From the NCBI RefSeq assembly GCF_048403405.1, contig NZ_CP183129.1: DNA of 64,000 nucleotides; one strand, written 5' to 3'. How positions within the stretch are numbered: position 1 is the first letter of the stretch; every line of letters starts with the position of its first letter. Below the pieces are notes generated by a model. That model was not told the origin of the DNA. It did no database searches and saw only the letters and a program-made list of their open reading frames with translations. The DNA is from Escherichia coli. GTDB taxonomy: Bacteria > Pseudomonadota > Gammaproteobacteria > Enterobacterales > Enterobacteriaceae. The position numbers and the translations under genes are program-made. This document shows positions 6,234 through 51,893 of the stretch, piece by piece.

Positions 6234-7922
6234 TTGCAATTTGACTACATCATTATTGGTGCCGGCTCAGCCGGCAACGTTCTCGCTACCCGTCTGACTG
6301 AAGATCCGAACACAACCGTGCTGCTGCTTGAAGCAGGCGGCCCGGACTATCGCTTTGACTTCCGCACCCAGATGCCCGCCGCGCTGGCGTTCCCGTTACA
6401 GGGTAAACGCTATAACTGGGCCTATGAGACGGAACCGGAACCGTTTATGAACAACCGTCGCATGGAGTGCGGACGCGGTAAGGGGCTTGGCGGGTCATCA
6501 CTGATCAACGGCATGTGTTACATCCGTGGTAACGCGCTGGATCTCGACAACTGGGCGCAAGAACCTGGCCTGGAGAACTGGAGTTATCTCGACTGCCTGC
6601 CCTACTACCGCAAGGCCGAGACTCGCGACGTGGGCGAGAACGACTACCACGGCGGTGATGGCCCGGTGAGCGTCACCACCTCCAAACCCGGCGTCAATCC
6701 GCTGTTTGAAGCGATGATTGAAGCGGGCGTGCAGGCGGGCTACCCGCGCACGGACGATCTCAACGGCTATCAGCAGGAAGGTTTTGGCCCGATGGATCGC
6801 ACCGTCACGCCGCATGGCCGTCGCGCCAGCACCGCGCGTGGCTATCTCGATCAGGCCAAATCGCGCCCTAACCTGACCATTCGAACTCACGCCATGACCG
6901 ATCACATCATTTTTGACGGCAAACGCGCGGTGGGCGTCGAGTGGCTGGAAGGCGACAGCACCATTCCGACCCGCGCGGCGGCGAATAAAGAGGTGCTGTT
7001 ATGTGCAGGCGCGATTGCCTCACCGCAGATCCTGCAACGTTCCGGCGTGGGTAGCGCTGAACTGCTGGCGGAGTTTGATATTCCGCTAGTGCATGATTTA
7101 CCCGGCGTCGGCGAAAATCTTCAGGATCACCTGGAGATGTATCTGCAATATGAGTGCAAAGAACCGGTTTCCCTCTACCCTGCCCTGCAGTGGTGGAATC
7201 AGCCGAAAATCGGTGCGGAGTGGCTGTTTGGCGGCACCGGCGTTGGTGCCAGCAACCACTTTGAAGCAGGCGGATTTATTCGCAGCCGTGAGGAATTTAC
7301 GTGGCCGAATATTCAGTACCATTTCCTGCCAGTGGCGATTAACTATAACGGCTCGAACGCAGTGAAAGAGCACGGCTTCCAGTGCCACGTCGGATCGATG
7401 CGCTCGCCAAGCCGTGGGCATGTGCGGATTAAATCCCGCGACCCGCACCAGCATCCGGGAATTCTGTTTAACTACATGTCGCACGAGCAGGACTGGCAGG
7501 AGTTCCGCGACGCAATTCGCATCACCCGGGAGATCATGCATCAACCGGCGCTGGATCAGTATCGTGGCCGCGAAATCAGCCCCGGTGTCGAATGCCAGAC
7601 GGATGAGCAGCTCGATGAGTTCGTGCGTAACCACGCCGAAACCGCCTTCCACCCGTGCGGTACCTGCAAAATGGGTTATGACGAGATGGCAGTGGTTGAC
7701 GCCGAAGGCCGCGTACACGGGCTGGAAGGCCTGCGCGTGGTGGATGCGTCAATTATGCCGCAGATTATCACCGGCAATTTGAACGCCACGACGATTATGA
7801 TTGGCGAGAAAATGGCGGATATGATTCGCGGGAAGGATGCGTTGCCGAGGAGCACGGCGGGATATTATGTGGCAAATGGGATGCCGGTGAGAGCGAAAAA
7901 AATGAGTCGTGATTTGAACTGA
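6234..7922 (+). CDS. betA: choline dehydrogenase BetA (GMC oxidoreductase)
   Basis: N-terminal FAD motif [14 protein letters not shown]; apparent TTG start at 6234 with AGGAGG 5 nt upstream; track ORF starts at TTG 6189 inside betB. Confidence 0.85.
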
Positions 7923-8115: not shown

Positions 8116-8784
8116 ATGAGTGAACAAATCAAACAGGATATCGATCTGATTGAGATTTTATTTTATCTGAAGAAAAAGATTCGTATTATCCTTTTTATTA
8201 TAACTATCTGTATGGCAATGGTGCTGTTGTTTCTGTATATCAATAAAGATAATATAAAAGTGAGTTACAGCCTAAAAATAAACCAGACAACACCAGGCAT
8301 ACTTGTTAGCTGTGATAGCAATAATAACTTTGCCTGTCAGACCACAATGACTGAAGATGTTATTCAGCGAATTACTACATTTTTTCAGACCAGCCCAGAT
8401 GTCAAGAACAGAGAAATAAAGCTGGAATGGTCAGGAGATAAGAGAGATTTACCAACTGCTGAAGCGGAAATATCTCGCGTGCAGGCGTCTATTATCAAAT
8501 GGTATGCGTCAGAATATCATAATGGCAGGCAAGTTCTCGATGAGATACAAACACCTTCAGCAATTAACAGTGAGCTTTATACAAAAATGATATACCTGAC
8601 CAGGAACTGGTCATTGTATCCGAACGGTGATGGCTGTGTAACTATAAGCTCACCAGAAATAAAAAATAAATACCCTGATGCCATTTGCCTGGCTCTGGGA
8701 TTTTTTATAAGCATTGTAATTTCTGTAATGTTTTGCCTTGTCAAAAAAATGGTAGATGGATACCAACAAAACTCTGGGCAGTAA
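8116..8784 (+). CDS. ykgH: predicted inner-membrane protein, YkgH-like
   Basis: 222-aa ORF with one N-terminal and one C-terminal hydrophobic segment; position between betA and ykgG matches ykgH. Confidence 0.6.
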   Translation: MSEQIKQDIDLIEILFYLKKKIRIILFIITICMAMVLLFLYINKDNIKVSYSLKINQTTPGILVSCDSNNNFACQTTMTEDVIQRITTFFQTSPDVKNREIKLEWSGDKRDLPTAEAEISRVQASIIKWYASEYHNGRQVLDEIQTPSAINSELYTKMIYLTRNWSLYPNGDGCVTISSPEIKNKYPDAICLALGFFISIVISVMFCLVKKMVDGYQQNSGQ

Positions 8785-9026: not shown

Positions 9027-9722
9027 TCAGCAATCCTCAATAATCAGATACACCGCTTTCACCGGGCCATGAACCCCGACGACTTTGATAAGCTCAATAT
9101 CCGCCGTTGAACTAGGGCCGCTAATGATGTTAATGCAGGACGGCATTCGTTCACCGGCCTGCGCTTTCTGATGCAATTTTTCTGCGAGTTGCGCTACACG
9201 CGGCAGGATAGTGCTTTTACGCAGGATAAAAAGAGAAGATTCCGGGAGCAGGCTCAATGAACGCCCGCGCCCGGCGGCGGAAAAAAGAACCACGCCTCCC
9301 GATTCGGTTAAACCATATTCAGCATACACTACGCCAACTTTAGCCTGCTCTGCCTGCGAGATATTCTCGGCACCTTTCGCCGGATCCCAAACAACGGCAT
9401 TGCATTCCTGCTGCAAACGTTCGCTAATCCCCAATTCCTCCAGCCTCGTGTCACCGCTAATCACGATCGACTGATCTCCCAGCTCTTTACACAGACGTAT
9501 TGCAGCTTCTGCGGCCTGCGCCTCGCTGGTCAGTTCACAGCGCGTCAACATAACATCGCTGGCAAACTGGATAAACGCGTCACAACGCTGCTGTTGGTTA
9601 AGTTGGGTAAGCCGCTCGTTAGCATAGTTGTTAAGCGGCGCATCTTCTGCTTGCGGTTCAAGTCGCAGCGGGCGACCCAGTGCCTGAGCAACGTTATTCA
9701 AAAATTCGCTCCGATTATCCAT
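9027..9722 (-). CDS. ykgG: LutC-like lactate utilisation protein YkgG
   Basis: ORF 9027..9875; start placed at ATG 9722 (MDNRSEF...), 231 aa, overlapping ykgF stop by 8 bp. Confidence 0.75.
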   Translation of the reverse strand: MDNRSEFLNNVAQALGRPLRLEPQAEDAPLNNYANERLTQLNQQQRCDAFIQFASDVMLTRCELTSEAQAAEAAIRLCKELGDQSIVISGDTRLEELGISERLQQECNAVVWDPAKGAENISQAEQAKVGVVYAEYGLTESGGVVLFSAAGRGRSLSLLPESSLFILRKSTILPRVAQLAEKLHQKAQAGERMPSCINIISGPSSTADIELIKVVGVHGPVKAVYLIIEDC

Positions 9723-11142
9723 TCTTTTTCTCCTGCGCCTGATGTTTCTTAAACCAACTACGGAAACTCTCTCCGTCAGCTTCAGGAAGATCGCGTGCTT
9801 CCATCCAGTCGCTAATCGCGCCAAATTTGAGTGGTGTTTTGCCGCCATTGATAAACCAGCTTGCCGCATGAGCACCGGCCATCATCCCGACTTTCCACAA
9901 TCCTGGATGACTATTGGCATAAGCGAACATTTTTATCGCCCGTTGCTCTGCTTTTGCGGTGATCCCTTTTTCAGCCATCACCCGACGATGACGCAAAATC
10001 AGTTTTGACAGCGGAATACGCACCGGACACACGCTGTCACAAGCAGTGCATAAAGAGCAGGCGTAGGGTAAATCTTTAAAATCTTTATAGCCGCCAAGTA
10101 GCGGAGAAATCACCGCACCAATTGGCCCTGGATAAATAGAGCCATATCCATGACCGCCAATATGGCGATATGCCGGACAAGTATTCATACAAGCCCCGCA
10201 GCGAATACAGCGCAGCACATCCCGAAATTCAGAGGCCAGCACCTCAGAACGCCCGTTATCGACAATAACCAGATGAAACTCTTCAGGACCATCAACGTGC
10301 CCCGCTTCGCGCGGTCCTGTCAGCCAGGTGTTGTATCCCGTCAAACGTGCACCAACGGCACTGCGCGCCAGCATGGTGATCAATACATCTACCTCGGCAA
10401 ACGTGGGGGCAATACGCTCCATTCCCATCACTGCAATATGCGTTTTAGGCAGCGTGGTACACATTCGCGCATTACCTTCATTGGTCACCAGGCATACCGA
10501 ACCGGTCTCTGCCACCGCGAAATTACAGCCGGTAATACCTATTTCAGCACTGAGGAAATCTTCGCGGATTTTTTGCCGGATGAATAAGGTCATTGCTTCA
10601 GGCGTTTCCGACCCCTCATAGCCCAGACGTTCGTGTAGCACCCGACGGATCTGATGGCGATCTTTATGAATTGCCGGGACCACAACATGAGAGGGCGGAT
10701 CTTGATCCAGCTGGAGAATGTATTCACCCAGATCGGTTTCAATCACCTGAATGCCAGCATCCTGCAACACATGATTGACACCAATCTCTTCGGTCACCAT
10801 CGATTTAGATTTCACCACCTTCCGGGCATTTTTGCGTTGGGCAACCTGTAAAATGTAGCGAGTGGCGTCTTCTTTAGTTTTTGCAAAATAGACGTGACCG
10901 CCGTTTTGCGTCACTTTTTCTGAGAGCTGGTACAGATAAGCGTCGAGATTACTCAGAACATGATCACGTATCTGGGCGGCCCGATCGCGCCACTCCTCCC
11001 AGTGCCCCAATTCATCGACCATTTTTTGCCGATTTGCCCCGATACGCTGCTGCGCGTTTGCCACCGCTTTGCGCATGATCGGATCTTCAATTTGCTGACG
11101 GATGCGTGTCTTAAAATCTGTATTACTGGTTTTGATCGACAT
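9715..11142 (-). CDS. ykgF: LutB-like iron-sulfur protein YkgF (4Fe-4S ferredoxin-type Cys motifs)
   Basis: 475-aa ORF with CxxCxxC clusters (CIRCGACMNTCP, CSLCTACDSVCP). Confidence 0.8.
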   Translation of the reverse strand: MSIKTSNTDFKTRIRQQIEDPIMRKAVANAQQRIGANRQKMVDELGHWEEWRDRAAQIRDHVLSNLDAYLYQLSEKVTQNGGHVYFAKTKEDATRYILQVAQRKNARKVVKSKSMVTEEIGVNHVLQDAGIQVIETDLGEYILQLDQDPPSHVVVPAIHKDRHQIRRVLHERLGYEGSETPEAMTLFIRQKIREDFLSAEIGITGCNFAVAETGSVCLVTNEGNARMCTTLPKTHIAVMGMERIAPTFAEVDVLITMLARSAVGARLTGYNTWLTGPREAGHVDGPEEFHLVIVDNGRSEVLASEFRDVLRCIRCGACMNTCPAYRHIGGHGYGSIYPGPIGAVISPLLGGYKDFKDLPYACSLCTACDSVCPVRIPLSKLILRHRRVMAEKGITAKAEQRAIKMFAYANSHPGLWKVGMMAGAHAASWFINGGKTPLKFGAISDWMEARDLPEADGESFRSWFKKHQAQEKKNG

Positions 11143-11152
11143 CTTTATATCC

Positions 11153-11872
11153 TCAGCGGCTCATCAGCACTTCAGCAATATGCATTACTTTGACTTTCTG
11201 CCCTTCCCGTTGTAATCGCCCACTGATGTTCAGCAGGCAACTCACGTCAGCACCAATTAAATACTCAGGGCGGACTTCCATCAGGTGCGCAACCTTTTCT
11301 TTCACCATCTCGCCGGATATTTCGGCCATTTTGACCGAGAACGTGCCGCCAAATCCGCAGCAGGTATCCTGTTCAGCAAAGGTCAACAGCTCCAGTCCAC
11401 GCACATTTTTCAGCAGCATAAGTGGCTCGTCCTTCACCCCCAGCTTACGGGCCAGGCTACAAGATGGGTGATACACCGCTCTCCCTTGCAAACTGGCACC
11501 TACATCGACTACCCCTAATGTATTAACAATAAAAGAGGTGAGATCCTGCATACGCGCGGCAACCTTTTCGGCTCGTGATGCCCATTCAGGCTCATCCGCC
11601 AGATACGTTGGGTAACTTTTTACGGCATAGGTACAGGAGCCAGCCGGTGAAATAATGGGATCGTCGTTATCCTCCAGTGCGGCGATCAGATTTTTCATCC
11701 CTGGAATCGCTTCTTTGATATAACCACTATTGATCGCAGGCTGACCGCAGCATCCCTGTTTCTCCGGGAAATTTACGCGACAGCCGAGTTTTTCCAGTAG
11801 CAGCACGGAGTCTCGTGCCATTCTTGATTTCAGGGCGTCACCAATACAGGTGACAAAGAAATTGACATTCAC
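11153..11872 (-). CDS. ykgE: LutA-like Cys-rich (CCG domain) oxidoreductase subunit YkgE
   Basis: 239-aa ORF, Cys-rich motifs (GCCGQP, TCCGFGG); first gene of ykgEFG. Confidence 0.8.
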   Translation of the reverse strand: MNVNFFVTCIGDALKSRMARDSVLLLEKLGCRVNFPEKQGCCGQPAINSGYIKEAIPGMKNLIAALEDNDDPIISPAGSCTYAVKSYPTYLADEPEWASRAEKVAARMQDLTSFIVNTLGVVDVGASLQGRAVYHPSCSLARKLGVKDEPLMLLKNVRGLELLTFAEQDTCCGFGGTFSVKMAEISGEMVKEKVAHLMEVRPEYLIGADVSCLLNISGRLQREGQKVKVMHIAEVLMSR

Positions 11873-12398
11873 AACTAATACTCCATTACTTCATGCCCAT
11901 TTATGCCCGATGGTTCCCCCCTTCCGGGGGATCAATCATCAATAAATATGGCGTTCTTTTTTAATTGGCTAGCAACATACCACCCCTCATTTGTATGACA
12001 AATGATAATCTTTCATCCAAACTTCAAATGCAATAACTAATTTTATTTCTTTCGGCATCGCTCACATTTTATGGGGAAATCGACGTTCATTTTTGGCATA
12101 AGAAATCCATTTAAAAATGGCTACATCCCTTATACCTATTCAGAGCTACTTATTCAGGGGTTATTGAGATATACACTGATGGTGTACAAAAAATCACCAA
12201 CAATAATCACGTATCAAGTAATAGTCGGCATTTTATTTAATTGAAGCAATTTAGTTTGCATTTTTATTTAAAAACTGAGCTAGAGTCCATCAGAAAAAAA
12301 TATATAAAGCCCAAACCACCGTTGGAAATAGAAATAGTTGAAAGGCTCACAACTCCCGGAATGCGGATTATCTTTGACCTGATTTCTGGCGGTTTTAT

Positions 12399-13253
12399 TC
12401 AGGGTGCAAGCTGTCTGACCCTTTCCCGATATTCTCCCGGAGTACAACCAAACTCGCGGACAAACGCCTTGTGAAAAGATGATTCACTGGCATAGCCTAC
12501 TGACTCAGCGATCACCACAACAGGGAGCATTTCCCGGGAAAACATCTGGGCCGCTATTTGTAGACGCAACTTTGTTAATACAGCTAGCGGCGTGGTTCCG
12601 GAAACATCACGGAAAAGCTGGGCAAAACTTGCCCGGGACATGTGGGCGATGCTGGCCAGCGATTCGACGGTCCAGGCGTGTCCTGGCATTTCCAGCATTT
12701 GCTGTATTACCGCACCAAGACGTGGATGCAGAAGCAAACTGAGAATGTTTTTCTCTGTATTAACCTGTGCAATCCACTCACGCACCGCGAGGGTAAAGAA
12801 TGTAGCGCAGATCTGGCTACACAGAGCATCCACTCCCGGCATTGCCGATCTGGATTCCTGTTGTAAAAACGGGATCGCCTCCCTCAGCCAGTTATATTCC
12901 ACGCTATGGTTCACTGGTGCTACAAACAGCGTTTCCGGCAAAGACGTTAAAAAATAACGCGCCGAATGTTGCAGCCGAAGAGTGCCACAGACAATACAGG
13001 TCGATTCATTATCGACATGACTCAGGCGATGAGCTGAATTTTGTGGTAGCAGGACCACATTTCCCGGGCGTAATGTAAAAATCTCTCCCGTCGGCATTTC
13101 CAGCTTCGCCGCTCCTTGCGTTAACGCATGCCAACGAATAACCGACAATTCCCCGGCACCATGTGGAAGTTGCCAGTCACTTCCTAACACGCAATTCTTA
13201 TCGATCGTTCCTTGTGGAGCGTTAAGCATCAACAAACGGCTAAGAGCATCCAT
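12399..13253 (-). CDS. rclR: AraC-family activator RclR (reactive chlorine response)
   Basis: ORF 12399..13304; ATG 13253 with GGAG RBS gives 284 aa; C-terminal AraC HTH; divergent from rclA. Confidence 0.8.
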   Translation of the reverse strand: MDALSRLLMLNAPQGTIDKNCVLGSDWQLPHGAGELSVIRWHALTQGAAKLEMPTGEIFTLRPGNVVLLPQNSAHRLSHVDNESTCIVCGTLRLQHSARYFLTSLPETLFVAPVNHSVEYNWLREAIPFLQQESRSAMPGVDALCSQICATFFTLAVREWIAQVNTEKNILSLLLHPRLGAVIQQMLEMPGHAWTVESLASIAHMSRASFAQLFRDVSGTTPLAVLTKLRLQIAAQMFSREMLPVVVIAESVGYASESSFHKAFVREFGCTPGEYRERVRQLAP

Positions 13254-17889: not shown

Positions 17890-17946
17890 CTGTAGCGATG
17901 TTTACATGAATTTATAACGAGACTACTGTCAGGCAATTCAATAAAT

Positions 17947-17980
17947 AATGGCGTTGAAGATGTCAACGCCATTATTGTTT
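17947..17980. terminator. bidirectional intrinsic terminator between ykgA and fdeC
   Basis: Perfect hairpin AATGGCGTTGA-agatg-TCAACGCCATT flanked by A-rich (upstream) and T-rich (downstream) tracts, between convergent genes. Confidence 0.55.
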
Positions 17981-39010: not shown

Positions 39011-39045
39011 GCCCCGCCAGCTATAATCGCGGGGCTTCGTTTTTC
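39011..39045 (+). terminator. intrinsic terminator after ykgJ
   Basis: Hairpin CCCCGC-cagctataat-GCGGGG followed by CTTCGTTTTT. Confidence 0.6.
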
Positions 39046-39194
39046 AGGGATAACAAAACCCGAAACTTCTTCCATCTGCCAGCAACAATGCCTCTTCCTC
39101 TATAGTGTTCTCCGGATCTACAGCATCCTGAAGTAGCGCGATGTACTCACGGGCTATCTGCTTCAGAAAGTAAAAAGCAATGTTTTTAACCTAT

Positions 39195-39226
39195 AAAAAT
39201 GGCGCTGCATTTGCGCCATTTTTATT
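39195..39226. terminator. bidirectional terminator downstream of yagU
   Basis: AAAAAT-GGCGC-tgcatttg-GCGCC-ATTTTTATT; A-tract and T-tract flank a GC stem, 10 bp from the yagU stop. Confidence 0.55.
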
Positions 39227-39236
39227 ATTCAATGCA

Positions 39237-48717: not shown

Positions 48718-48789
48718 ACGTTAACAACGACCGACTCTTTACTGTGCAATATTGTGTCAGGTAGTCCCTCTGCGTTCAATTCCAGGGTT

Positions 48790-49210
48790 TGTACTGACCC
48801 CAAAAAGTTGGACAGTTAAACACGAGGCATATAGGTCTGATTCCGATATTCAATTGGAGTCAGACCTTTTAATTTCAGGCTAATTCTTCTGCTGTTGTAG
48901 TATTCAATATATTCCGTAACAGCATCCTTCAGTTCGCTTATATTACTGAACTCATCAAGATAAAAACACTCCGACTTTAAGGTTCCAAAGAAACACTCCA
49001 CCACAGCATTATCCAGACAATTGCCTTTTCTGGACATGCTTTGTTTAATACCATGTTCTTTAAGGATATTTTGATATCTTCTCATACGATACTGCCATCC
49101 CTGGTCAGAGTGCAGAACAGGATGCTCGTGAGGATTAAGCTTTTTGAATGCCTGATCGAGCATATTCTCAACCATGTTCATCACTGGTCTTTCCGAAAGG
49201 CTGTAAGAAA
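48790..49210 (-). mobile_element. IS3-family (IS150-like) fragment: terminal repeat plus C-terminal part of orfB
   Basis: End TGTACTGACCCC at 48790; minus-strand ORF 48816..49283 encodes the DDE integrase C-terminus (HSDQGWQY...[11 protein letters not shown]); truncated at IS26 boundary 49210/49211. Confidence 0.65.
49203..49210. repeat. 8-bp IS26 target-site duplication copy (GTAAGAAA)
   Basis: Abuts IS26 copy 1; its reverse complement TTTCTTAC is at 50736-50743 abutting copy 2. Confidence 0.8.
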
Positions 49211-50030
49211 GGCACTGTTGCAAATAGTCGGTGGTGATAAACTTATCATCCCCTTTTGCTGATGGAGCTGCACATGAACCCATTCAAAGGCCGGCATTTT
49301 CAGCGTGACATCATTCTGTGGGCCGTACGCTGGTACTGCAAATACGGCATCAGTTACCGTGAGCTGCAGGAGATGCTGGCTGAACGCGGAGTGAATGTCG
49401 ATCACTCCACGATTTACCGCTGGGTTCAGCGTTATGCGCCTGAAATGGAAAAACGGCTGCGCTGGTACTGGCGTAACCCTTCCGATCTTTGCCCGTGGCA
49501 CATGGATGAAACCTACGTGAAGGTCAATGGCCGCTGGGCGTATCTGTACCGGGCCGTCGACAGCCGGGGCCGCACTGTCGATTTTTATCTCTCCTCCCGT
49601 CGTAACAGCAAAGCTGCATACCGGTTTCTGGGTAAAATCCTCAACAACGTGAAGAAGTGGCAGATCCCACGATTCATCAACACGGATAAAGCGCCCGCCT
49701 ATGGTCGCGCGCTTGCTCTGCTCAAACGCGAAGGCCGGTGCCCGTCTGACGTTGAACACCGACAGATTAAGTACCGGAACAACGTGATTGAATGCGATCA
49801 TGGCAAACTGAAACGGATAATCAACGCCACGCTGGGATTTAAATCCATGAAGACGGCTTACGCCACCATCAAAGGTATTGAGGTGATGCGTGCACTACGC
49901 AAAGGCCAGGCCTCAGCATTTTATTATGGTGATCCCCTGGGCGAAATGCGCCTGGTAAGCAGAGTTTTTGAAATGTAAGGCCTTTGAATAAGACAAAAGG
50001 CTGCCTCATCGCTAACTTTGCAACAGTGCC
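49211..50030 (+). mobile_element. IS26 (IS6 family), copy 1, 820 bp
   Basis: 14-bp terminal inverted repeats GGCACTGTTGCAAA at 49211 and 50017-50030; encodes Tnp26. Confidence 0.92.
49274..49978 (+). CDS. tnpA: IS26 transposase Tnp26
   Basis: 234-aa product [35 protein letters not shown]...; track ORF starts at upstream TTG 49256. Confidence 0.92.
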   Translation: MNPFKGRHFQRDIILWAVRWYCKYGISYRELQEMLAERGVNVDHSTIYRWVQRYAPEMEKRLRWYWRNPSDLCPWHMDETYVKVNGRWAYLYRAVDSRGRTVDFYLSSRRNSKAAYRFLGKILNNVKKWQIPRFINTDKAPAYGRALALLKREGRCPSDVEHRQIKYRNNVIECDHGKLKRIINATLGFKSMKTAYATIKGIEVMRALRKGQASAFYYGDPLGEMRLVSRVFEM

Positions 50031-50743
50031 CTTGCTGGTAGTGGTTCTGTAGCCAGGTGGCTGAAGGTCTATGAAGAGCGCGGAGAAGCTGGTTTACGCG
50101 CGCTCAAGATTGGCACCAAAAGAAACATTGCAATATCAGTTGATCCAGAAAAAGCGGCATCAGCATTGGAGCTGTCAAAAGACCGACGCATTGAGGATCT
50201 TGAAAGGCAAGTTCGATTTCTTGAAACGCGGCTTATGTATCTAAAAAAGCTGAAAGCCTTAGCTCATCCCACGAAAAAGTAAAAGTACTCAACGAGCTAA
50301 GGCAGTTTTATCCTCTTGATGAGCTTCTCAGGGCTGCGGAGATACCGCGCAGTACGTTTTATTACCATCTAAAGGCTCTCAGCAAGCCTGACAAGTATGC
50401 GGACGTTAAAAAGCGTATTGGTGAGATTTATCACGAGAATAGAGGCCGATACGGATACCGTAGGGTAACGCTGTCTCTTCATCGAGAAGGGAAACAGATT
50501 AACCATAAAGCTGTTCAGCGCCTGATGGGAACCCTCTCACTTAAAGCAGCGATTAAGGTCAAGCGATACCGCTCTTACAGAGGAGAGGTAGGGCAAACCG
50601 CCCCTAATGTTCTCCAAAGAGATTTCAAGGCTACGCGGCCAAACGAGAAGTGGGTTACCGATGTTACTGAATTTGCAGTCAATGGGCGCAAGCTGTATTT
50701 GTCTCCAGTAATAGATCTCTTCAACAACGAAGTTATTTCTTAC
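50031..50743 (+). mobile_element. IS3-family (IS150-like) fragment: C-terminal part of orfA and N-terminal part of orfB, inverted relative to 48790..49210
   Basis: orfA end with stop at 50279-50281; orfB N-terminus to 50743 (...KWVTDVTEF...[17 protein letters not shown]); frame continues into the minus-strand fragment across the shared 8-bp repeat. Confidence 0.65.
50736..50743. repeat. 8-bp IS26 target-site duplication copy (TTTCTTAC)
   Basis: Reverse complement of 49203-49210, abutting IS26 copy 2. Confidence 0.8.
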
Positions 50744-51563
50744 GGCACTGTTGCAAAGTTAGCGATGAGGCAGCCTTTTGTCTTATTCAAAGGCCTTACA
50801 TTTCAAAAACTCTGCTTACCAGGCGCATTTCGCCCAGGGGATCACCATAATAAAATGCTGAGGCCTGGCCTTTGCGTAGTGCACGCATCACCTCAATACC
50901 TTTGATGGTGGCGTAAGCCGTCTTCATGGATTTAAATCCCAGCGTGGCGTTGATTATCCGTTTCAGTTTGCCATGATCGCATTCAATCACGTTGTTCCGG
51001 TACTTAATCTGTCGGTGTTCAACGTCAGACGGGCACCGGCCTTCGCGTTTGAGCAGAGCAAGCGCGCGACCATAGGCGGGCGCTTTATCCGTGTTGATGA
51101 ATCGTGGGATCTGCCACTTCTTCACGTTGTTGAGGATTTTACCCAGAAACCGGTATGCAGCTTTGCTGTTACGACGGGAGGAGAGATAAAAATCGACAGT
51201 GCGGCCCCGGCTGTCGACGGCCCGGTACAGATACGCCCAGCGGCCATTGACCTTCACGTAGGTTTCATCCATGTGCCACGGGCAAAGATCGGAAGGGTTA
51301 CGCCAGTACCAGCGCAGCCGTTTTTCCATTTCAGGCGCATAACGCTGAACCCAGCGGTAAATCGTGGAGTGATCGACATTCACTCCGCGTTCAGCCAGCA
51401 TCTCCTGCAGCTCACGGTAACTGATGCCGTATTTGCAGTACCAGCGTACGGCCCACAGAATGATGTCACGCTGAAAATGCCGGCCTTTGAATGGGTTCAT
51501 GTGCAGCTCCATCAGCAAAAGGGGATGATAAGTTTATCACCACCGACTATTTGCAACAGTGCC
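50744..51563 (-). mobile_element. IS26, copy 2, inverted relative to copy 1
   Basis: 820 bp with the same 14-bp terminal repeats; encoded transposase identical at protein level to copy 1. Confidence 0.92.
50796..51500 (-). CDS. tnpA: IS26 transposase Tnp26
   Basis: Same 240-aa track translation as 49256..49978. Confidence 0.92.
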
Positions 51564-51803
51564 GATGATTTCAGATTTCATGACTTGAGACACACCTGGG
51601 CAAGTTGGCTGGTTCAAGCCGGTGTCCCGTTGTCAGTGTTACAGGAAATGGGAGGCTGGGAGTCTATCGAAATGGTTCGTCGATATGCTCACCTCGCACC
51701 TAATCACCTTACCGAACACGCACGGCAAATAGACTCGATCCTGAACCCATCGGTCCCAAATTTGTCCCAGTCAAAAAATAAGGAAGGTACTAATGATGTG
51801 TAA
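51564..51803 (+). pseudogene. 3' remnant of a tyrosine-recombinase (phage-type integrase) gene truncated by IS26
   Basis: About 80 C-terminal codons containing HDLRHTWAS and RRYAHL catalytic-region motifs; begins at the IS26 boundary, ends 15 bp from tRNA-Thr. Confidence 0.65.
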
Positions 51804-51817
51804 CTTATTGATTTAAA

Positions 51818-51893
51818 TGGTGCCGATAATAGGAGTCGAACCTACGACCTTCGCATTACGAATGCGCTGCTCTACCAACTGAGCTATATCGGC
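51818..51893 (-). tRNA. thrW: tRNA-Thr (anticodon CGU)
   Basis: Reverse complement reads GCCGATATAGCTCAGTTGGTAGAGCAGCGCATTCGTAATGCGAAGGTCGTAGGTTCGACTCCTATTATCGGCACCA; adjacent to proA as for thrW. Confidence 0.9.

Follow-up and report, generated by a model that had tools for sequence, protein, structure and literature searches.

The closest described relatives of the locus analysed here are the lactate-utilisation systems LutABC of B. subtilis (YvfV-YvfW-YvbY) and LldEFG of S. oneidensis (SO_1520-1518), whose L-lactate-specific role has been shown genetically. The LutABC operon has been described as conserved and widespread, with the exact roles of its subunits unclear (PMC3924224). We analysed a stretch of 64,000 nucleotides (nt) of Escherichia coli DNA (hereafter the window; assembly GCF_048403405.1, contig NZ_CP183129.1; window coordinates are used throughout) that contains the genes ykgE, ykgF and ykgG. 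The ykgEFG operon has the same three-gene order as LutABC and LldEFG and shares with them the domains of each subunit (two CCG domains in one protein; LUD, two [4Fe-4S] motifs and LutB_C in the next; LUD in the last) as well as the specificity for L-lactate; the likeness was judged by order and domains and, for YkgF, by a curated family model. We conclude, with a probability of roughly 0.85, that ykgEFG encodes a respiratory L-lactate dehydrogenase of the LutABC/LldEFG type.

Genes, subunit domains and published phenotypes of ykgEFG

The list of open reading frames (ORFs) gives three co-directional minus-strand frames in 9027-11872 (Table 1). The stop codon of ykgE is followed by a 10-nt spacer and the ATG of ykgF; ykgF and ykgG share 8 nt (ATGGATAA), which places the ykgG start within the end of ykgF. 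These junctions and exact coordinates bear out the three-gene order with overlapping or near-overlapping frames of the original prediction, and the tightly packed succession of CCG protein, Fe-S protein and LUD protein is that of LutABC/LldEFG. The mechanically called ykgG frame reaches upstream to a GTG at 9875; the annotated start is the ATG at 9722, which has an AGGAG Shine-Dalgarno sequence and from which Citrobacter homologs align beginning at residue 1. The region is 100% identical to the annotated ykgE, ykgF and ykgG of E. coli strain 4621 and was found at an identity of at least 95% in 5219 of 5426 complete E. coli genomes (~96%; the other 207 gave no match). Codon differences from a plasmid paralog of 84% identity were mostly synonymous (synonymous:nonsynonymous 93:13 in ykgE, 175:25 in ykgF and 80:31 in ykgG). 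Because of the identical annotated copies, the wide presence in E. coli and the excess of synonymous changes, the three frames are to be regarded as real genes under selection and not as chance ORFs.

Domain searches against Pfam found two CCG domains in YkgE (PF02754, E 3.9e-34, two stretches), with CCG motifs at residues 41-43 and 171-173 and flanking cysteines at 9, 80, 138 and 212. YkgF combines an N-terminal LUD domain (PF02589, E 2e-52) with a Fer4_8 dicluster domain (PF13183, E 1.7e-14) and LutB_C (DUF3390; PF11870, E 7.7e-10), and the pattern CxxCxxCxxxCP occurs in it twice, as CIRCGACMNTCP (residue 312) and as CSLCTACDSVCP (residue 362). The single LUD domain of YkgG (PF02589, E 1.7e-30) spans residues 65-228. 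With the NCBIfam equivalog model TIGR00273 ('LutB/LldF family L-lactate oxidation iron-sulfur protein'), YkgF scores 777.3 bits and so passes the cutoff of 444.8. Sequence searches of the PDB brought up only HdrC (matching YkgF residues 309-413), HdrB (matching YkgE over almost its full length) and, for YkgG, the LutC crystal structure 2G40 (E 3.3e-9); YkgG retains the histidine of the GVHGP motif, and its residue aligned to R204 of the NAD (nicotinamide adenine dinucleotide) docking model is Val. None of the three subunits has a transmembrane-grade hydrophobic segment (maximum KD19 1.21-1.39), and for this reason the complex is taken to be peripheral. We assign ykgEFG by sequence to the LutABC/LldEFG-type three-subunit systems, given that YkgF passes the equivalog and that the three genes match these systems in domains and order.

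The original prediction had described the operon as resembling a LutABC-type oxidase with a substrate yet to be identified. The family assignment stands (TIGR00273, 777 bits; domains; order), and the statement on the substrate is outdated by a published L-lactate phenotype. A clean ΔykgEFG mutant of E. coli MP1 matched the wild type in anaerobic fitness, was outcompeted anaerobically with nitrate and L-lactate, and had no defect with D-lactate; the authors' conclusion was that YkgEFG acts as a respiratory L-lactate dehydrogenase like LutABC and LldEFG (PMC9701030, Microbiome 2022). The comparison of deletion mutants on L- and D-lactate that had been suggested as a check was thus already in print. 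The operon is therefore already known, named and partly characterised, and its identification as LutABC is correct but ordinary; the present analysis adds the placement of the YieP operator and promoter, their conservation with permease modules, and a relic of the L-lactate permease gene lctP.

Control region, plasmid and Citrobacter modules, and the lctP relic

The ykgE promoter region contains a match to the chromatin immunoprecipitation-exonuclease (ChIP-exo) consensus atTTGTaTGAcaAAT of YieP, exact, with no mismatch, and occurring once in the window. The consensus comes from a study in which ΔyieP raised ykgEFG ~10-fold (PMC7642389). Reg-Seq reported a repressor site downstream of the RNA polymerase (RNAP) site in the ykgE promoter, identified the repressor as YieP by mass spectrometry and knockout, and gave FNR as the second regulator (PMC7567609). 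Translation of yieP is in turn repressed by FnrS, an Fnr-dependent small RNA (PMC11340327), which would provide a route to anaerobic derepression of ykgEFG and would fit an anaerobic role.

We propose TTGCAT/GATTAT, read directly from the sequence, as the probable ykgEFG promoter, from which a start site is predicted; this placement is favoured because the YieP site then falls downstream of the RNAP site, as Reg-Seq states. TTGCAT was invariant in an alignment with two plasmid versions of the region, and its presence in seven Citrobacter species follows from the design of the search pattern. A promoter called by the scanner (TTGTCA-16-TATGTT, 12001-11974) was rejected as the main promoter: the YieP site would cover its -35 element, contrary to Reg-Seq, and its -10 element lies past the operator, in sequence that diverges in the plasmid and Citrobacter versions. 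The operator core TTTGTCATACAAATGA is kept in the plasmid and Citrobacter versions, and the block at 12041-12070 is nearly invariant among the chromosome, the two plasmid versions and Citrobacter, which makes it a candidate activator site. In the 5' leader of ykgE, between the YieP operator and the ykgE start, a G/C hairpin (CCCCCGGAAGGGGGG, ~11915-11932, minus strand) folds. The leader as a whole was not more stable than its shuffles (z -1.09) and matched no Rfam family, and a riboswitch or attenuator is not proposed.

Relatives of the operon were found on plasmids and in Citrobacter. The ykgEFG cluster was present in 170 plasmid records, 157 of them at 80-90% identity (among all 170, 121 were from Klebsiella and 115 were conjugative). 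Plasmid proteins were 95% (YkgE), 95% (YkgF) and 87% (YkgG) identical in amino acids (aa) to the chromosomal ones, with 84% nucleotide identity. On K. pneumoniae plasmid p69-1 (locus L002, 7001-13607), lctP is divergent from dld-ykgE-ykgF-ykgG; on the E. coli IncHI1B plasmid CP098972 (locus L003, 1-13204), the cluster lies between narZHWI and lctP, with an IS1 separating the nar genes. The neighbourhood of narZHWI is suggestive given the nitrate-dependent phenotype and may be coincidence. Between lctP and dld, the Klebsiella plasmid has a YieP site that departs from the consensus at one position, and the plasmid promoter block aligns with the chromosomal block throughout, from AAAATGTGAGCG..CCGAAAGAAATAA via TATTGCAT to the operator core. 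A DNA-pattern scan of 100,044 species' genomes with TATTGCAT-N20-48-TTTGTCATACAAATGA returned seven loci, all in Citrobacter. At the Citrobacter locus that we followed in detail, the pattern stands upstream of ykgEFG and the operon is divergent from a 524-aa Lactate_perm protein (Pfam E 4e-125); lctP was found by tblastn in six of the seven loci, and the Citrobacter ykgEFG proteins are 84-95% identical to those of the window. A perfect inverted repeat, ACTGAA-TCGC-TTCAGT, is conserved just upstream of lctP in Citrobacter (locus L005, ~6905-6925) and on the Klebsiella plasmid (L002, ~11960-11980); it may serve the permease gene as a further operator or as a hairpin in its leader.

The E. coli chromosome retains a trace of this permease between the ykgE promoter and the 3' end of rclR (Table 1), oriented divergently as is the intact lctP of its relatives. 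The relic matched residues 320-365 of Citrobacter LctP by tblastn (E 8e-6), with 17 of 25 core residues identical to the Citrobacter and plasmid proteins (VE..TTPGM.IIF..I.GGFIQGAS), and by blastn had 77-78% nucleotide identity over 74-75 nt (E ~1e-11). Its Smith-Waterman score was 87 against 28.6 ± 4.2 for shuffled sequences, and 0 of 2000 shuffles reached 87. Support for the relic consists of this direct comparison with close LctP sequences, as Pfam Lactate_perm does not detect it in the 77-aa ORF 12241-12474. There was no RefSeq feature at the relic in 12 genomes sampled, and the relic-bearing intergenic region is conserved in 5142 genomes. The relic is non-functional and is taken to mark the lost transporter of an ancestral module. 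Local alignment detected no dld relic between operator and ykgE; the sequence shared with the plasmid is limited to the final ~45 nt leading up to and into ykgE.

Genomic association with lactate transport is thus seen both in the divergent lctP beside orthologs and paralogs and in the relic of the window. The simplest reading is that chromosomal ykgEFG is the remnant of an lctP<>(dld-)ykgEFG module after loss of the permease. A mobile lactate module, composed of a permease, a D-lactate dehydrogenase and LutABC under one YieP-controlled region, would in E. coli have decayed to the oxidase alone, and this decay would help to explain the weak phenotype of ykgEFG mutants. Because operator and promoter travel with the module on Klebsiella and E. 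coli plasmids and on Citrobacter chromosomes, we also raise a more tentative idea, which we think somewhat doubtful as it stands: YieP may serve an ancestral lactate-respiration module of enterobacteria as its dedicated sensor, responding to lactate, pyruvate or a related C3 acid, with chromosomal ykgEFG as the permease-less relic of that module. Were this true, lactate and pyruvate would be candidate ligands for the orphan regulator YieP, and the restriction to anaerobic nitrate respiration would follow from FNR control and from FnrS acting on YieP.

Table 1. Coordinates of the ykgEFG operon, its control region and neighbouring features in the window
Feature	Coordinates	Strand	Description
ykgE (lutA/lldE-like)	11153-11872	-	239 aa, GTG start; RefSeq annotation ykgE
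ykgF (lutB/lldF-like)	9715-11142	-	475 aa; LUD, HdrC-like segment with two [4Fe-4S] motifs, LutB_C tail
ykgG (lutC/lldG-like)	9027-9722	-	231 aa; LUD domain only
YieP (GntR/FadR-type repressor) operator	11989-12003	-	ATTTGTCATACAAAT on the ykgE strand
Putative sigma-70 promoter of ykgEFG	12005-12033	-	-35 TTGCAT 12028-12033; 17-nt spacer; -10 GATTAT 12005-12010
Conserved upstream block, candidate activator site	12041-12070	-	AAAATGTGAGCGATGCCGAAAGAAATAAAA
L-lactate permease (lctP) relic	12336-12408	+	divergent from ykgE; inside mechanical ORF 12241-12474
ykgH	8116-8784	+	222 aa; convergent with ykgG across a 242-nt gap

Proposed reaction and rival readings

In the model that we propose, L-lactate would be oxidised to pyruvate at a LUD module formed by the N-terminal domain of YkgF and by YkgG. 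The two [4Fe-4S] clusters in the HdrC-like portion of YkgF would relay the electrons to the CCG-domain clusters of YkgE, which is HdrB-like, and from there the electrons would enter the quinone pool and reach a terminal reductase (nitrate reductase in the sole condition with a phenotype). The LUD domains would stand in place of the flavoprotein subunits of glycolate oxidase GlcDEF and of anaerobic glycerol-3-phosphate dehydrogenase GlpABC, and by the same analogy YkgE would be the terminal, quinone-side Fe-S subunit. The electron path is modelled in this way because of the domain order, the LutB-LutA fusion, the analogy to GlcF, GlpC and HdrBC, and the nitrate-dependent phenotype. We infer from such comparisons where catalysis takes place, in which order electrons move and that quinone accepts them, as well as the direction of gene loss at the locus; the identity of the genes, their domains, the family of YkgF, the nitrate-dependent phenotype specific for L-lactate, repression by YieP and the lctP relic with its synteny are shown by the analysis or by published work. 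YieP bound just downstream of the promoter keeps expression off, with FNR as the second published input. Uptake would have to rely on carriers encoded elsewhere because the chromosomal module has lost its permease; LldP and GlcA are lactate carriers of this kind. LutABC systems occur widely among gut bacteria and pathogens, and E. coli would lend itself well to work on the mechanism and the structure of the complex.

Several observations weigh against the assignment as a respiratory L-lactate dehydrogenase or against parts of the model. In two mouse models of colitis LldD was the dominant enzyme and ΔykgEFG was not impaired (PMC9701030); PMC7984374 cites Chai et al. 2009 for the lack of an aerobic L-lactate phenotype in E. 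coli K-12; overexpression of ykgEFG left lactate titres unchanged (PMC6626047); and the Helicobacter pylori homolog HP0137-0139 gave NAD-dependent L-lactate dehydrogenase activity in extracts, not dye-linked, NAD-independent activity (PMC4117512). We found no purified-enzyme assay of E. coli YkgEFG in the literature and no structure of a LutABC complex in the PDB copy searched. Pfam found no flavin- or NAD-binding domain in YkgE, YkgF or YkgG, and no Rossmann-type domain, which leaves the chemistry of hydride removal unexplained; the LUD module may use undescribed chemistry, with lactate oxidised without a recognisable flavin or NAD domain. The clusters of YkgE need not be HdrB-type non-cubane clusters, because the first cysteine of each HdrB CxxC is absent from YkgE. 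With regard to control, no match to an FNR box (TTGAT-N4-ATCAA, up to 2 mismatches) was found in 11873-12398.

The physiological substrate could be other than, or broader than, L-lactate and include short 2-hydroxy acids, which we regard as unlikely. YkgEFG has been named, together with LldD and Dld, in the oxidation of 2,4-dihydroxybutyrate to 2-oxo-4-hydroxybutyrate (Malfoy et al. 2024, as cited in a 2026 paper, PMC13279387), though the evidence as relayed there is second-hand and comes from a triple mutant. L-lactate is already served by LldD in E. coli (PMC9701030), and ykgEFG is controlled not by the lactate sensor LldR but by YieP, whose ligand is not known and whose other strongly repressed operon, yohJK, is proposed to encode 3-hydroxypropionate transporter(s) (PMC7642389). 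Nevertheless, the sole published phenotype is specific for L-lactate over D-lactate (PMC9701030), the TIGR00273 equivalog assigns L-lactate oxidation, and close orthologs and paralogs consistently adjoin an L-lactate permease (on plasmids also a D-lactate dehydrogenase). If the substrate is L-lactate, the acceptor might still be NAD(P), bound by the LUD domains, in place of quinone. The extract activity of H. pylori HP0137-0139 points that way (PMC4117512), as does the docking of NAD(H) in a conserved cavity of the LutC dimer with a proposed catalytic histidine (PMC3924224) that is present in the GVHGP motif of YkgG. A nicotinamide-linked enzyme is nonetheless improbable: the E. coli phenotype needs the respiratory acceptor nitrate (PMC9701030), the GlcF/GlpC-like Fe-S arrangement suits delivery to quinone, the fused NCBI family carries 'quinone' in its name, no Rossmann-type domain was detected, and the R204 position is Val in YkgG.

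Two further readings concern the state of the chromosomal locus and the supply of its substrate. That ykgEFG is a decaying, essentially cryptic remnant without a significant role in E. coli would be in keeping with a partner permease lost but for its relic, tight YieP repression under laboratory conditions, the lack of a phenotype in aerobic K-12 and in mice, and the 207 of 5426 complete genomes without a match. Against it stand three intact ORFs in ~96% of E. coli genomes at an identity of at least 95%, a strongly purifying substitution pattern relative to paralogs, the conservation of promoter, operator and upstream block, and a specific fitness defect in vitro (PMC9701030), and we give this reading little credence. 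The convergent ykgH had been put forward, speculatively, as a gene for substrate transport. Adjacency, convergent orientation and the presence of two hydrophobic segments are all that speaks for it. The segments lie one at each terminus, a bitopic Wzz-like topology and not the architecture of a carrier, and the Wzz-like N-terminus itself is sub-threshold in Pfam (20.9 bits against a cutoff of 25.5); YkgH matched no NCBIfam model and no Pfam model above the curated cutoff. Its GC content is 36% against 51% in ykgEFG, and among its 48 matches in 5.8 billion proteins all named ones are from Escherichia, whereas LutABC is widespread. In the Citrobacter locus and the plasmids that we inspected, ykgH is not beside ykgEFG and lctP is the partner. 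We therefore rejected ykgH as the transporter, a role that we consider extremely improbable, and regard the gene as having no link to the operon. Compared with the main E. coli cluster, the ykgH copy of the window reaches an identity of only 94%.

Other features of the window and comparison with known systems

The operon is flanked by betA and ykgH on one side and by rclR-rclABC on the other. Over aligning stretches the window is otherwise at least 99.9% identical to strain 4621. At ~17939-17947 it is without the IS200C that strain 4621 has between the gene of a helix-turn-helix (HTH) regulator and fdeC. At 48788-51800, beside a tRNA gene (51821-51893, minus strand), the segment of the window differs and holds two ORFs, inverted relative to each other, for 240-aa transposases with identical Pfam scores (DDE_Tnp_IS240, IS6/IS26 type; 49256-49978, plus strand, and 50796-51518, minus strand) together with fragments of an rve-domain (IS3-like) transposase and of a phage-type integrase; in the corresponding place strain 4621 has the toxin-antitoxin pair AbiEi/AbiEii and a gene whose hypothetical product is 1069 aa long. 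Rfam IS009 (RF02111) matched at 39031-39231 (minus strand; 187.8 bits against a gathering score of 117), near ykgJ/yagU by collinearity with strain 4621.

Relatives outside the LutABC type were compared at the level of the Fe-S subunits. In the NCBIfam model NF045670, 'L-lactate dehydrogenase (quinone) large subunit LdhH', YkgF aligns to positions 2-464 and YkgE to positions 468-705 of 706. LdhH is a single fused polypeptide, whereas E. coli ykgF and ykgE are split and collinear with the model; with 426.7 and 183.8 bits, respectively, against a cutoff of 800, the two proteins are related to LdhH and not members of the family. GlcF and GlpC have two [4Fe-4S] motifs followed by two CCG domains, and YkgF residues ~304-473 plus YkgE align to them end to end; YkgE also matches the C-terminal halves of GlcF, GlpC and LdhH. 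By these alignments the C-terminal part of YkgF together with YkgE amounts to a split Fe-S subunit of the GlcF/GlpC type. The natural LdhH fusion and the collinearity with GlcF and GlpC support an electron path from YkgF to YkgE and physical contact between the two. The scores (GlcF 99.5 bits against a cutoff of 333; GlpC 78.8 against 278) place ykgEFG outside both families, and the partners differ: LUD domains in ykgEFG, flavoproteins in the case of GlcD/E, GlpA/B and HdrA. No gene for a flavin adenine dinucleotide (FAD) subunit lies within the ykgEFG operon.

The resemblance extends to heterodisulfide reductase-type proteins. HMMER aligned YkgE to HdrB (5odc_B) over nearly its whole length, with four of the five CCG-motif cysteines retained per half, and YkgF residues 309-413 resemble HdrC (5odc_C). 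YkgE departs from the full HdrB motif C...CCG...CxxC in that the first cysteine of each CxxC is replaced (..AGSC, ..DVSC), and it reached 26.7 bits against a cutoff of 345 for the HdrB model TIGR03288.

The plasmid and Citrobacter lctP<>(dld-)ykgEFG modules have a homologous promoter block and YieP operator and gene junctions identical to those of the chromosome. They differ from it in an intact L-lactate permease and, on the Klebsiella plasmid that we analysed, in dld, where the E. coli chromosome has a ~75-nt lctP relic and no dld at the ykgEFG locus. The loss of the adjacent permease likewise sets chromosomal ykgEFG apart from LutABC and LldEFG, as does its control by YieP and FNR and not by LutR or LldR. 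A further difference is its standing as a secondary enzyme beside the flavoenzyme LldD, with a phenotype seen only under anaerobic nitrate respiration. LldD catalyses the same reaction in the same organism, and both are described as respiratory L-lactate dehydrogenases that feed the quinone pool. LldD depends on flavin mononucleotide (FMN) and belongs to an unrelated family, so that LldD and YkgEFG are non-homologous isofunctional enzymes; LldD is the main enzyme aerobically and in vivo; its gene is grouped with that of its permease (lldPRD), and lactate induces it via LldR.

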